Shown: piece by piece, positions 24,621-37,664 of the stretch | Layout: each line of letters begins with the position of its first letter | Numbering within the stretch: the first letter of the stretch is position 1 | DNA from: Escherichia phage vB_EcoM_DalCa | Length of the DNA stretch: 64,000 bases | Strand: one strand, 5' to 3' | Sequence record: NC_054908.1 | Made by a program: the position numbers and the translations under genes | The notes under the pieces: model-generated | Databases searched by the model: none | What the model saw: only the letters and a program-made list of their open reading frames with translations | Told to the model about the DNA's origin: nothing

Positions 24621-24888
24621 AAAGGCCTCCTATCATTTTTGTCCTGTATTTACTTTATGCCGATGCACGGCCTTAACTTTATCAAGGTATTTTTTCAAAA
24701 TTTCGCAATCTAGTATAGTCTGCCGGAGATTGGTTGAGTGATACTTCTCGACGCAAAGCTGAAATAACATTTCCAACTTCCCTACGAATTTCATCTAATT
24801 GAAGCACAGTAAGATTGCGAAGTTGCTTTTCAGTTAATTGTAGCATATATACCCCTTTAGTTAGATAAACCTATTTATAACTTTTGCA

Positions 24889-25470: not shown

Positions 25471-25479
25471 ATCACCTTC

Positions 25480-25665
25480 TTAAAGCATATTCACATAAGC
25501 TATTAATTCGTTTTCTTTCTTATCAAACCGATCAGCAAATTCTTCTTGCTGTTCGGGAGATAGCGGGCCGTATTCATCATAAAAGGTGTTTGCTTCTGTA
25601 TGCTCATCTAGAAGTTCATGGATAAGCTCAAACAATTTATCTTTTTGTTCTTTACTCAGACTCAT
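25480..25665 (-). CDS. Hypothetical acidic protein
   Basis: 61-aa ORF. Confidence 0.45.
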   Translation of the reverse strand: MSLSKEQKDKLFELIHELLDEHTEANTFYDEYGPLSPEQQEEFADRFDKKENELIAYVNML

Positions 25666-25831
25666 ATATTAATTTCCAGGAGTTTTAAAATAATTCGCTT
25701 TTGCTTAAATATTTCCATAGTTAAATGACCAGTATCTTTTTGACCGATTCCAATGGCAAAACCTTTATTGACAGCGAGTTCAATTAAATTATCAATCTCA
25801 CGTAACACTTCATACTGTAACTCAAAACTAT

Positions 25832-26044
25832 TCATTTCGGTTTACCTTCTTTAACGAAATCTGGATAAGGATAAAATCCCGAATAAAATCCTTCACCTTT
25901 ATGATTGATGCATCCTTTATTAGAACAATAGCACCAATAATCGAAATCACAAGCCATTTCATCGTTGCATAAAGCAAAAACAACTGGCCATTTACACTTT
26001 TCACAATGGGCATTTTTAAGAATACTAGTTTGGCTCATAACCAT
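25832..26044 (-). CDS. Hypothetical Cys-rich small protein
   Basis: 70 aa with about 10 Cys (CEKCKW, CNDEMAC, CYC, GC). Confidence 0.45.
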   Translation of the reverse strand: MVMSQTSILKNAHCEKCKWPVVFALCNDEMACDFDYWCYCSNKGCINHKGEGFYSGFYPYPDFVKEGKPK

Positions 26045-26262
26045 GTAACCTTTAAGCAGTATTCTTCTACATGCTGTTTACGACCTTTCTTATCAATAAA
26101 GGTATATTCAACGAATGTTCCAATGTAGTCTTTATCTACATCATGCGGACTATTAATTGGACATTTAGTACGGCAAATGCGTTCCCATTGACGAATAATT
26201 ACTGCCTTATTCTTTGGGTCATATGGATGTGGATAATGTATATTCATAATAACGGTTCCCAA
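26035..26262 (-). CDS. Hypothetical protein
   Basis: 75-aa ORF. Confidence 0.45.
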   Translation of the reverse strand: MGTVIMNIHYPHPYDPKNKAVIIRQWERICRTKCPINSPHDVDKDYIGTFVEYTFIDKKGRKQHVEEYCLKVTWL

Positions 26263-26711
26263 TCAACAATCACAATTTCTAATTTAGAGGAATATGTATC
26301 TAAAATCCCCTCAATAATATCCCAGTTCCCTTTACCTATGCCTGCACCAATCCTAGGCATATAGATTGTAGGTTTAATCAGTTTATTTTCACCAAACTCA
26401 TTTAATTCTAACATACAATTCATTAAAGCGGAATACTCAAAATTTGGCCCTGGTTGAAATTGAGTATAAAGGTTGAAGCAATACGCTTTATGAGTCCTAA
26501 AGTATTTTTCATAGACTGAGTAAGAACCGAGTTTAGTTACATCACCCCATTCAGTCTGTAATTTATCAGCTTCCAAAATTTTAGGGAAAGCTTTGGTTAA
26601 TTGACCCGCTACGCCTGAACCCATAGTATGAAAACAATTGCATCCATGCGCAATATTTTTACCTTCAGCGAAAAGGGCGACAATATCGCCCTTGATATAT
26701 TTTACAATCAT
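26244..26711 (-). CDS. Predicted macro-domain (ADP-ribose-binding/processing) protein
   Basis: 155 aa; motifs resembling macro domain (NAHGCNCFHTMGSGVAGQL and IGAGIGKG Gly-rich loop). Confidence 0.55.
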   Translation of the reverse strand: MIVKYIKGDIVALFAEGKNIAHGCNCFHTMGSGVAGQLTKAFPKILEADKLQTEWGDVTKLGSYSVYEKYFRTHKAYCFNLYTQFQPGPNFEYSALMNCMLELNEFGENKLIKPTIYMPRIGAGIGKGNWDIIEGILDTYSSKLEIVIVDWEPLL

Positions 26712-27049
26712 CTAGTACTCAATCCTCGATTATAAGAATCTACTAAACGGTCAACCATTGAATGACAAGCGGCTTTATCTTTCTCCTCCGCAACTGAACA
26801 TTCTAAGGTATTCCACTTTTTAGCATATCGTTTTAACAATGTATCATTTTTGTATCTGCTTGATTTATCTCTTTCTCCGTCTTTATATGCATATATTAAT
26901 TTCTGCGCAAATTCAGCTTGGCATGCTTTATTTTTCCCGCAATAATCCGCTGCAGTACGGTTTACATACTCTCTAATTTCAGTATATGATGTATCTGCTA
27001 ACACAGAAAATGAAATTAATCCTATACATAAAACCAAAATTTTAGTCAT
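26708..27049 (-). CDS. Hypothetical secreted protein
   Basis: 113 aa; N-terminal signal peptide MTKILVLCIGLISFSVLA; four Cys in mature part. Confidence 0.5.
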   Translation of the reverse strand: MTKILVLCIGLISFSVLADTSYTEIREYVNRTAADYCGKNKACQAEFAQKLIYAYKDGERDKSSRYKNDTLLKRYAKKWNTLECSVAEEKDKAACHSMVDRLVDSYNRGLSTR

Positions 27050-28073: not shown

Positions 28074-28102
28074 TGATAGAAAAATTATACCACAGTCAAG
28101 AG
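28074..28102 (-). promoter_or_regulatory. T4 early-type promoter upstream of regB
   Basis: Minus -35 GTTTACT, 17-bp spacer, TGG-TATAAT. Confidence 0.55.
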
Positions 28103-28115
28103 GAAAAGTAAACAG

Positions 28116-31260: not shown

Positions 31261-31716
31261 TTAAAAGAGGCTGTTCATTATTCGGTAAAGTGAAGGACCC
31301 ATCACATATTGCCACTGAGTACGAGGAATAAGAGCAAAAGCATCCATCTCTGGAATCATAACGCCATCTTTATTTTCAAAATAAGACTCGCAATGGCAAT
31401 TTCTAAACATCTCATGCTCTACTGGAATCGTATAATAAAATAACTGTAAGTCTTTATTACTAGAATATTTAAATACACCTAAGTCTTCTAGAAGGTCTGG
31501 ATTATAATCGATAAAACCAGTCTCTTCTGAGCATTCTCTTTTTGCAGCTTCCAGTGCATTCAAATCAGAACTTTCTACGCGGCCCTTTGGAATATCCCAG
31601 CGATGTGCCATCATTCCAGGCTTACGAGAACCAGTAACCCGACCCATAAATAAATCTTTATCTTCTGTCATAAAGATAATACCAGCTGATAGTGTTTTCA
31701 TTTTAATTTCCTGCAT
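31261..31716 (-). CDS. nudE: Nudix hydrolase
   Basis: 151 aa; Nudix box GRVESSDLNALEAAKRECSEETGF; position immediately after e as T4 e.1. Confidence 0.75.
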   Translation of the reverse strand: MQEIKMKTLSAGIIFMTEDKDLFMGRVTGSRKPGMMAHRWDIPKGRVESSDLNALEAAKRECSEETGFIDYNPDLLEDLGVFKYSSNKDLQLFYYTIPVEHEMFRNCHCESYFENKDGVMIPEMDAFALIPRTQWQYVMGPSLYRIMNSLF

Positions 31717-36646: not shown

Positions 36647-36722
36647 TGGTCGAGGCAGTAGGGATCGAACCTACGACCTAGGACTTAGAAGGTCCTTGCT
36701 CTTCCTTCTGAGCTATGCCCCG
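36647..36722 (-). tRNA. tRNA-Arg (anticodon UCU), CCA encoded
   Basis: Manual fold of reverse complement: 7-bp acceptor stem, anticodon arm AGGAC-CUUCUAA-GUCCU, T-arm GTAGG-TTCGATC-CCTAC; 76 nt. Confidence 0.8.
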
Positions 36723-36726
36723 TAAT

Positions 36727-36802
36727 TGGGGTGACCGATGGGAGTCGAACCCATGACTACGAGAATCACAATCTCGAGTTCTACCAACTGAACTACGGCC
36801 AC
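36727..36802 (-). tRNA. tRNA-His (anticodon GUG), CCA encoded
   Basis: Manual fold: D-stem GTTC/GAAC, anticodon arm CGAGA-UUGUGAU-UCUCG, T-arm ATGGG-TTCGACT-CCCAT, discriminator C; not part of the 8-tRNA T4 set. Confidence 0.75.
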
Positions 36803-36916
36803 ATTAATACCTACTCCAACAATCAAGATGTCTTCACACGAAATTAAGAGAAGAGTGATCAGTTCAACCCCTATAATCGCGTCAAGTAGATATTAATGTG
36901 ACAGTTGTCACAAATT

Positions 36917-36991
36917 TGGCGGACGTGATAGGATTCGAACCTATAACCAATCGCTTAACAGGCGATCGCTCTGCCATTGAGCTACACATCC
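36917..36991 (-). tRNA. tRNA-Asn (anticodon GUU), CCA encoded
   Basis: Manual fold: anticodon arm ATCGC-CUGUUAA-GCGAT, T-arm with GGTTCGAATCC; not part of the T4 set. Confidence 0.75.
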
Positions 36992-36995
36992 AAAT

Positions 36996-37082
36996 TGGTG
37001 GGGAGTGGTGGAGTCGAACCACCCGAGTCGCAATGACAATGGATTTACAGTCCACACCGCTACCTCTACGGGATAACTCCCC
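36996..37082 (-). tRNA. tRNA-Tyr (anticodon GUA), class II long variable arm, CCA encoded
   Basis: Manual fold: acceptor GGGGAGT/ACTCCCC, anticodon loop CUGUAAA, long variable arm, T-arm GGTGG-TTCGACT-CCACC; 87 nt; not part of the T4 set. Confidence 0.7.
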
Positions 37083-37091
37083 AAATTAATT

Positions 37092-37166
37092 TGGTGGCCC
37101 TGGGTGGAATTGAACCACCATCTGGCGATTATGAGTCGCTTGCTTGAACCTTCCAGCTACAGGGCC
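37092..37166 (-). tRNA. tRNA with anticodon CAU (Met or lysidine-modified Ile), CCA encoded
   Basis: Manual fold: acceptor GGCCCTG/CAGGGCC, anticodon loop CUCAUAA, T-arm GGTGG-TTCAATT-CCACC; cannot separate Met from Ile(LAU) by eye. Confidence 0.65.
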
Positions 37167-37167
37167 T

Positions 37168-37243
37168 TGGTGCTGATTGACGGAATCGAACCGCCGACCT
37201 TCTCATTACAAGTGAGTTGCTCTACCTACTGAGCTAAATCAGC
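37168..37243 (-). tRNA. tRNA-Thr (anticodon UGU), CCA encoded
   Basis: Manual fold: acceptor GCTGATT/AATCAGC, anticodon loop CUUGUAA, T-loop TTCGATT. Confidence 0.75.
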
Positions 37244-37248
37244 AAAAC

Positions 37249-37338
37249 TGGCGGAGGCGATAGGATTTGAACCTATGAGTCGCCGGAGCGACTGCCGGTT
37301 TTCAAGACCGGTGCATTAAACCACTCTGCCACGCCTCC
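37249..37338 (-). tRNA. tRNA-Ser (anticodon UGA), class II, CCA encoded
   Basis: Manual fold: acceptor GGAGGCG/CGCCTCC, anticodon arm CCGGT-CUUGAAA-ACCGG, long variable arm; 90 nt. Confidence 0.8.
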
Positions 37339-37340
37339 AG

Positions 37341-37414
37341 TCTCCGTGGCAGGATTTGAACCTACGACATTCTACTCCCAAAGCAGACGCTCTACCAAAC
37401 TGAGCTACACGGAG
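37341..37414 (-). tRNA. tRNA-Pro (anticodon UGG), CCA not encoded
   Basis: Manual fold: acceptor CTCCGTG/CACGGAG, anticodon loop UUUGGGA, T-loop TTCAAAT; 3' end abuts tRNA-Ser 5' end, consistent with the T4-type Pro-Ser dimeric precursor. Confidence 0.75.
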
Positions 37415-37424
37415 TAAATTAAAT

Positions 37425-37498
<74 letters not shown>

Positions 37499-37503
37499 AA
37501 ATT

Positions 37504-37590
37504 TGGTGCGAGAAGTGGGACTCGAACCCACAAGGAAATCATTCCGCAGCATTTTAAGTGCTGTGCCTTTACCAATTTGGCCATTCTCGC
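37504..37590 (-). tRNA. tRNA-Leu (anticodon UAA), class II, CCA encoded
   Basis: Manual fold: acceptor GCGAGAA/TTCTCGC, anticodon arm CAGCA-CUUAAAA-UGCUG, long variable arm; 87 nt. Confidence 0.8.
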
Positions 37591-37591
37591 G

Positions 37592-37664
37592 CTGGGAATA
37601 AAGGACTCGAACCTTTGCATCCTGGAATCAAAATCCAGTGCCTTACCAACTTGGCTAATTCCCA
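37592..37664 (-). tRNA. tRNA-Gln (anticodon UUG), CCA not encoded
   Basis: Manual fold: acceptor TGGGAAT/ATTCCCA (U1-A72), anticodon arm CTGGA-UUUUGAU-TCCAG, T-arm AAAGG-TTCGAGT-CCTTT; 3' end abuts tRNA-Leu as in the T4 Gln-Leu dimeric precursor. Confidence 0.75.

Follow-up and report, generated by a model that had tools for sequence, protein, structure and literature searches.

The open reading frame at 26244..26711 on the minus strand is tk.4 of a T4-like phage of the genus Tequatrovirus, and its 155-aa product is a stand-alone macrodomain that belongs with TARG1, DarG, SCO6735, and Poa1p in the ALC1-like class. The domain and the role against DarTG2 of exactly this protein are already known from the literature, and what we add here is the classification of Tk.4 as a Gln-type, and not a DarG-type, macrodomain. 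Judging from its residue pattern and from the behavior of characterized relatives, Tk.4 (also named AdfM) very likely counters DarTG2 by removing ADP-ribose from thymidine in DNA, through a lysine-independent route resembling that of SCO6735.

Identity of the gene, its neighborhood, and its published role

All 155 residues of the product are shared with T4 Tk.4 (AAD42667.1), and the gene is flanked by vs and tk.3 in the same way as in T4 (AF158101); by identity and synteny, it is the orthologue of T4 tk.4. The reading frame starts with an ATG at 26711, runs on the minus strand to 26244, and comprises 155 codons followed by a TGA stop, encoding a single macrodomain without any other domain. The coordinates and the length given in a preliminary description of this DNA were correct, and the strand, which it had not given, is the minus strand. 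At the nucleotide level, at least 15 phage records carry exactly this tk.4 sequence (100% identity), and 106 reach at least 99%. Matching phage records number 648, nearly all of them from T4-like phages that infect Escherichia, Shigella, Yersinia, and Salmonella. Depositors have variously labeled the gene as "macro domain protein," "Poa1p-like family protein," "ADP-ribose binding module protein," "phosphatase," or "hypothetical protein." For the window, i.e., the whole 64,000-nt stretch of DNA that was analyzed, the best 20-kb match was phage U115 (98.4%), and the stretch from tk to tk.3 (the tk.1-tk.2 region) differs from T4, showing that the window belongs to a close relative of T4 and not to T4 itself.

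The divergent stretch forms a small variable island beside the conserved tk.3-tk.4-vs block. Positions 25471-26033, between tk and tk.3, do not align to T4, and three small minus-strand ORFs (25480-25665, 25662-25835, and 25832-26044) replace T4 tk.1/tk.2. Their products are 61 aa (55% identical to T4 Tk.2), 57 aa, and 70 aa long, the last being a Cys-rich protein that matches the Pfam "Phage zinc binding domain" (PF23895) and has no counterpart at this location in T4. Elsewhere in the window, the rI.1 homologue (24633-24846, minus strand) is apparently split by a frameshift relative to the 70-aa RI.1 of T4, with the ORF at 24682-24846 (54 aa) corresponding to the first 52 residues of RI.1 at 98% and the last 22 residues lying in another frame, in the ORF at 24633-24794; this split could be either a real pseudogene or a sequencing error. 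The window also carries 11 tRNA genes (36647-37664, minus strand), namely, those for Arg, His, Asn, Tyr, Met(CAT), Thr, Ser, Pro, Gly, Leu, and Gln, with tRNA-Tyr scoring barely over the Rfam threshold (30.3 versus 29 bits). T4 carries 8 tRNAs and is not known to have those for His, Asn, and Tyr, so the tRNA set of the window phage would be an enlarged one.

The gene order along the minus strand is regB (Pfam REGB_T4), vs.1 (SLT), vs, tk.4, tk.3, several small ORFs, and tk. The gene thus sits between vs and tk.3, with tk beyond the small ORFs, in the tk/vs accessory block to which the preliminary description had assigned it. The product of tk.3 is 100% identical to T4 Tk.3 and matches Pfam DUF7202. 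Coordinates and sequence revealed an ATGA overlap at each end of tk.4, one joining the vs stop to the tk.4 start (26708..26711, minus strand) and the other joining the tk.4 stop to the tk.3 start (26244..26247, minus strand), making tk.4 part of a densely packed minus-strand unit. The vs/tk.4 overlap suggests co-transcription and possibly translational coupling of the two genes. Upstream of regB, a consensus scan gave a sigma-70-like promoter match (28084..28112, minus strand; TTTACT-17-TATAAT with an upstream TG), the top-scoring match on the tk.4 strand in a region where such matches are as numerous as in shuffled sequence. This candidate promoter could drive transcription of the regB-vs.1-vs-tk.4 unit. 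A terminator-like hairpin at 26673-26693 was dismissed, as it lies on the opposite strand and within tk.4, and terminator-like structures in the region are as frequent as expected from shuffled sequences. The neighboring vs gene (valyl-tRNA synthetase modifier, 26708-27049, minus strand) encodes 113 aa versus 115 in T4, the two-residue difference falling in an N-terminal hydrophobic signal-like segment (...FSVLADTS... versus ...FSASASADTS... in T4), and its product gave no Pfam match.

The presence of an A1pp (macro) domain in tk.4 orthologues was described by Nolan et al. in 2006 (PMC1524935). In a HIDEN-SEQ preprint of November 2025, which awaits peer review, tk.4 was the sole significant gene of a T4 transposon library on a DarTG2 host; a clean deletion of tk.4 sensitized T4 to DarTG2, and the gene was renamed adfM, for anti-DarT factor macrodomain (bioRxiv 10.1101/2025.11.20.689424). 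The requirement of tk.4 for DarTG2 resistance has therefore been shown genetically for T4, and the preprint authors went only so far as to say that an enzymatic clearance of ADP-ribose from DNA "seems likely." In the study of AdfN, DarTG2 resistance persisted in T4 lacking adfN, in T4 lacking both adfA and adfN, and in T2 lacking adfN, and the authors suggested a further anti-DarTG2 factor (PMC11825919). By its published role, which was established for this exact protein, tk.4 permits T-even phages to replicate in hosts that ADP-ribosylate thymidine in DNA, and its product pairs with AdfN, which deals with the guanine modification made by DarTG1. The first function proposed in the preliminary description, i.e., reversal of an ADP-ribosylation-based host defense, agrees with the T4 screen and deletion.

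Fold and class of the Tk.4 macrodomain

The preliminary description had called the product macro-domain-like and had set a Pfam search beforehand as the check. This search matched Pfam Macro (PF01661) at 27.7 bits, over the gathering cut-off of 22 bits, across profile positions 2-113 of 118, and both fold prediction and fold search agreed with the assignment. Tk.4 also matched PHROG 335 (E value of 1.3e-65), which bears the label "phosphatase." When a single Tk.4 sequence was compared with the PDB, BT1257 came first at 1.3e-9, followed by yeast Poa1p, SCO6735, DarG, and TARG1, and a 27-sequence profile of the Tk.4 family lifted the same macrodomain matches to values of 3.5e-16 through 9e-10. 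An AlphaFold2 model computed from the 27-sequence alignment reached a mean pLDDT of 94.5 and a pTM of 0.90. Foldseek searches of the PDB with this model placed TARG1, Poa1p, BT1257, and DarG at the top, with SCO6735 (5E3B) absent among the 50 best matches. The predicted structure and the fold search agree on the three-layer alpha/beta/alpha arrangement of the macro fold, and the nearest structural neighbors are all ALC1-like, clearly ahead of the MacroD, viral, and PARG types. Tk.4 is a macrodomain, and the Pfam, PHROG, and PDB matches, the fold model, and the complete identity to the T4 protein rule out a chance motif or a non-coding ORF.

Membership in the DarG family, as implied by the structural comparison of the preprint, was ruled out by score, by the missing catalytic lysine, and by the missing C-terminal domain and darT partner. 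Tk.4 scored 30.3 bits against NCBIfam DarG (NF048014), below the equivalog cut-off of 250, and only 36 bits against the PADLOC DarG model, versus 133 bits for PhiKZ gp104. DarG (PDB 5M31/5M3E, 5M3I, and 7OMU) has a catalytic Lys80 (T. aquaticus numbering) where Tk.4 has Gln84. It also has a C-terminal domain that binds DarT, and a darT gene next to it, whereas Tk.4 is a macrodomain only, and a tblastn search with a DarT2 query found no darT over the 64-kb window.

A functional parallel is PhiKZ gp104, a chimallivirus macrodomain. Like Tk.4, it is a phage-encoded, stand-alone macrodomain countering DarTG2, and it removes DarT2-made ADP-ribose from DNA in vitro (Cell Rep 2026, PMC13309987). Unlike Tk.4, it belongs to another, DarG-like lineage and carries Lys78; its match to M. 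tuberculosis DarG in the PDB reaches 91 bits. The two proteins are not orthologous, given their 17% identity, their Lys-type and Gln-type active sites, and the PADLOC DarG scores cited above. The name AdfM was nevertheless given independently to both (PMC13309987; bioRxiv 10.1101/2025.11.20.689424), and annotation pipelines may come to conflate them. Against DarTG2, phages have thus drawn on no fewer than two macrodomain lineages. Other members of the ALC1-like class also depart from Tk.4 at key positions. Human TARG1/OARD1 has a Lys84/Asp125 dyad, for which the equivalents in Tk.4 are Q84 and G126. Yeast Poa1p, a known ADP-ribose-1''-phosphate phosphatase, contains a large insertion and has a Ser in place of Q84; its H-x-C-N-C motif with the catalytic His (H23) recurs in Tk.4 as H22-G-C-N-C.

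Active-site residues and relatives of Tk.4

Tk.4 and its homologues were aligned with DarG, TARG1, PhiKZ gp104, BT1257, SCO6735, and Poa1p using MAFFT, and the alignment was checked by hand. The SCO6735 sequence was obtained through a BT1257 query, and the TARG1 sequence was verified to be identical to PDB 2LGR. Residues were counted over 117 full-length protein-database homologues and over 80 relatives from bacterial genome assemblies. The HGCNC motif (H22-G23-C24-N25-C26, codons at 26634..26648, minus strand) contains N25, which aligns with the active-site Asn of DarG (N22), PhiKZ AdfM (N23), and SCO6735 (N27) and is kept in 116 of the 117 homologues, and H22, which aligns with SCO6735 H24 and Poa1p H23 and is a His in 112 of them. 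The first glycine loop of the ADP-ribose cleft follows (G31-S32-G33, codons at 26613..26621, minus strand), with G33 present in all 117 homologues and position 32 being Ala, Ser, or Gly across the family; S32 of Tk.4 takes the position of a lysine found in SCO6735 (K34) and in DarG.

The residue that sets Tk.4 apart from DarG lies in the N80-L81-Y82-T83-Q84 segment (codons at 26460..26474, minus strand). Q84 stands where DarG (K80), TARG1 (K84), and PhiKZ AdfM (K78) have their catalytic lysine in the alignment, and a Gln occupies the same site in SCO6735 (the essential Gln85) and BT1257. This Gln was found in 117/117 protein-database homologues and in 80/80 bacterial-assembly relatives, the latter having been collected with scan patterns that did not include the Q84 residue. 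The loop that follows, from Q84 to Y93, has 8 residues in Tk.4 and in 83 of the 117 homologues. Finally, the phosphate-binding loop (P119-R-I-G-A-G-I-G-K-G-N-W130, codons at 26322..26357, minus strand) reads P-[RK]-I-G-[AC]-G-[IL]-A-G-G-x-W across the family, which fits the PRIGCGLAGGxW of SCO6735/BT1257 and not the PPLGxGNGGLxW of DarG. Its G122 and G124 are invariant and are equivalent to SCO6735 G126 and G128. Of the two motifs quoted in the preliminary description, IGAGIGKG stands exactly as given, at residues 121-128, whereas the other had been written one residue short and reads NIAHGCNCFHTMGSGVAGQL at residues 19-38. Based on the conserved glycine loops and Asn, Tk.4 is predicted to bind ADP-ribose.

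The comparison with SCO6735 of Streptomyces coelicolor is especially informative for the catalytic route. SCO6735 is a stand-alone macrodomain without a DarT partner. In vitro, it clears the ADP-ribose that DarT has put on thymidine more rapidly than DarG or TARG1 do, cleaving this linkage on DNA without a catalytic lysine, and it can rescue cells from DarT (PMC9411070). Its Q85A and Q85E mutants are inactive, N27S nearly abolishes activity, and G128E reduces it; the authors proposed a role for the Gln in placing the distal ribose, with a water molecule held by the backbone initiating the reaction (PMC9411070). The counterparts of SCO6735 H24, N27, Q85, G126, and G128 are all kept in Tk.4, and the Gln and Asn pair (Q84 and N25) is invariant or nearly so in the family. 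The resemblance has its limits. The DNA-positioning lysines K34 and K89 of SCO6735 are missing from Tk.4, which has S32 at the first site and no basic residue at the second. The mobile loop, which in the SCO6735/BT1257 subclass comprises 13-14 residues and is about 5 residues longer than in TARG1 and DarG, has only 8 in Tk.4, as in TARG1 and DarG. Tk.4 is 21% identical to SCO6735 (PDB 5E3B) and 29% identical to Bacteroides BT1257 (PDB 2FG1/2AFC), and it has its own HGCNC and N-x-Y-T-Q signature, unlike either protein. Because of the missing K34/K89, the short loop, and the 21-29% identity, Tk.4 was not filed in the SCO6735/BT1257 subclass; we filed it as an ALC1-class, Gln-type macrodomain that would work like SCO6735, going by the residues and by analogy.

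The family extends beyond close relatives of T4. Two homologues with 35-38% identity, deposited within bacterial MAG bins, turned out not to be bacterial, since their contigs carry Rnl1, Dda, PNKP, dCMP deaminase, and a T4 spanin and are those of T4-like phages. The neighborhood of the homologue differs from that of tk.4 in both. In one of them (L003, 41-2397), it is preceded by a DUF4326 gene, an Rnl1-type RNA ligase gene, and an unannotated gene of 131 aa, and a Dda-like helicase gene follows. In the other (L004, 6001-8941), an SLT gene is the second gene after the homologue and a polynucleotide kinase-phosphatase gene the third. An apparent tk.4-vs-vs.1-like synteny in the latter contig was dismissed, as the ORF between the macro gene and the SLT gene has no detectable similarity to Vs. 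True bacterial relatives, with 31-48% identity and mostly 150-170 aa, were found on contigs ranging from hundreds of kilobases up to several megabases in length and include Ruegeria, Roseovarius, Shimia, Pelagimonas, Hyphomicrobiaceae, Nitrospirales, and Desulfobacula. A tblastn search with P. aeruginosa DarT2 detected none within 3 kb of the 80 bacterial relatives, although distant DarT-like genes could escape such a single-sequence query. Clustering of ORFs around the high-GC bacterial relatives was noisy and gave only lineage synteny in Rhodobacterales, such as a membrane protein about 72 bp downstream.

The Tk.4 family thus looks like an "orphan" eraser in phages and bacteria. A wider reading, which we hold only tentatively, is that Tk.4 is the founding phage member of a separate and widespread orphan macrodomain family, recognizable by HGCNC ... 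N-x-Y-T-Q ... P-x-I-G-x-G-[IL]-[AG]-G-G-x-W, that is present in T4-like phages and, as stand-alone genes, in many assemblies of free-living bacteria. This family would remove thymidine-linked ADP-ribose independently of lysine, and its origin would be separate from those of DarG and PhiKZ AdfM. If this reading holds, Tk.4 might also act on Asp/Glu-linked ADP-ribose on protein or on uracil-linked ADP-ribose on RNA, like SCO6735 and TARG1, and the T4 eraser would be broader than a mere anti-DarT2 factor.

Proposed mechanism and alternatives

Infection of a DarTG2 host frees the DarT2 toxin, which ADP-ribosylates thymidine in single-stranded DNA and thereby blocks phage replication. In the mechanism that we propose, tk.4 is probably an early gene that is co-transcribed with regB, vs.1, and vs. 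The two glycine loops of Tk.4 (G31-S-G33 and G122-A-G-I-G126) would then hold the ADP-ribose, while N25 and Q84 would position the distal ribose, allowing hydrolysis of the ribose-thymine bond. The outcome would be the restoration of replicable DNA and the release of free ADP-ribose. Given the invariant Gln at position 84 in place of a catalytic Lys, a lysine-independent, water-mediated route as in SCO6735 appears most likely. Against such a hydrolase count the absence of the catalytic Lys, of K34/K89, and of the long loop, the low identity to SCO6735 and BT1257, and an acidic pI. Tk.4 is mildly acidic, with a predicted pI of 5.9, versus 9.7 for the basic SCO6735, but this argues little against activity on DNA, because PhiKZ AdfM acts on DNA at a pI of 5.05. 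With the predicted activity, Tk.4 would offer a compact and well-conserved model of how ADP-ribose can be taken off DNA without a catalytic lysine.

The absence of the DarG/TARG1 catalytic lysine could also be taken to mean that Tk.4 neutralizes DarT2 mainly without catalysis, by binding the toxin or shielding the modified DNA, with the macro fold serving as a binding module. Such behavior has precedents: SCO6735 also inhibits DarT by direct interaction, and in vitro this inhibition persists in SCO6735, DarG, and TARG1 variants that have lost catalysis (PMC9411070), so that hydrolysis may not be the sole mode of action of Tk.4. Two other phage anti-DarT factors have likewise been proposed to bind DarT, with bacterial two-hybrid support for AdfB and only as a hypothesis for AdfA (PMC10760071). 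We nonetheless consider a purely binding role improbable for Tk.4. Apart from the two lysines, the catalytic residues of SCO6735 are strictly conserved over about 200 phage and bacterial homologues, as expected of an enzyme rather than of a toxin-specific binding surface. Moreover, the 155-aa Tk.4 contains nothing like the C-terminal DarT-binding domain of DarG, and the single-sequence tblastn search placed no DarT2 within 3 kb of the bacterial-assembly relatives.

If Tk.4 is an enzyme, as we favor, its main substrate could be a small molecule such as ADP-ribose-1''-phosphate or O-acetyl-ADP-ribose, perhaps in connection with phage RNA repair. The "phosphatase" label of PHROG 335 points this way, as do the presence of Poa1p among the nearest structures and the H-x-C-N-C motif common to both proteins. 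So does the gene order in the distant T4-like contigs, where one homologue lies one gene downstream of an Rnl1-type ligase and five upstream of a polynucleotide kinase-phosphatase, and the second lies three genes upstream of a polynucleotide kinase-phosphatase. Iyer and colleagues likewise favor soluble ADP-ribose derivatives as substrates for many phage macrodomains (PMC9503650). However, gene order is fluid in the early regions of T4-like phages, and Poa1p has a Ser where the Tk.4 family has an invariant Gln, the residue also found in the DNA hydrolase SCO6735. T4 Pnkp/Rnl1 repair is not known to yield ADP-ribose-1''-phosphate. The "phosphatase" label stems from the old A1pp domain name and not from an assay (PMC1524935). 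Since sensitivity to DarTG2 is the only phenotype on record, a small-molecule substrate seems quite unlikely, and we retain thymidine-linked ADP-ribose in DNA as the preferred one.

The other function guessed in the preliminary description, i.e., that Tk.4 undoes or adjusts the ADP-ribosylation (or RNAylation) that T4 Alt, ModA, and ModB carry out on host proteins, would give the three ADP-ribosyltransferases of T4 a natural eraser partner but found no support and is highly improbable, as these enzymes make arginine-linked ADP-ribose, outside the documented range of the ALC1-like class, and the closest relatives SCO6735, TARG1, and DarG act on thymidine- or Asp/Glu-linked ADP-ribose. Elsewhere in the window, the ORF at 31261-31716 (minus strand), which occupies the T4 e.1/nudE.1 site beside the lysozyme gene, encodes a Nudix hydrolase (Pfam NUDIX, 49.9 bits). 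NudE.1 reportedly hydrolyzes ADP-ribose, and a recent preprint is said to tie it to NAD-capped RNA. Speculatively, this Nudix hydrolase could dispose of the ADP-ribose that Tk.4 would release.
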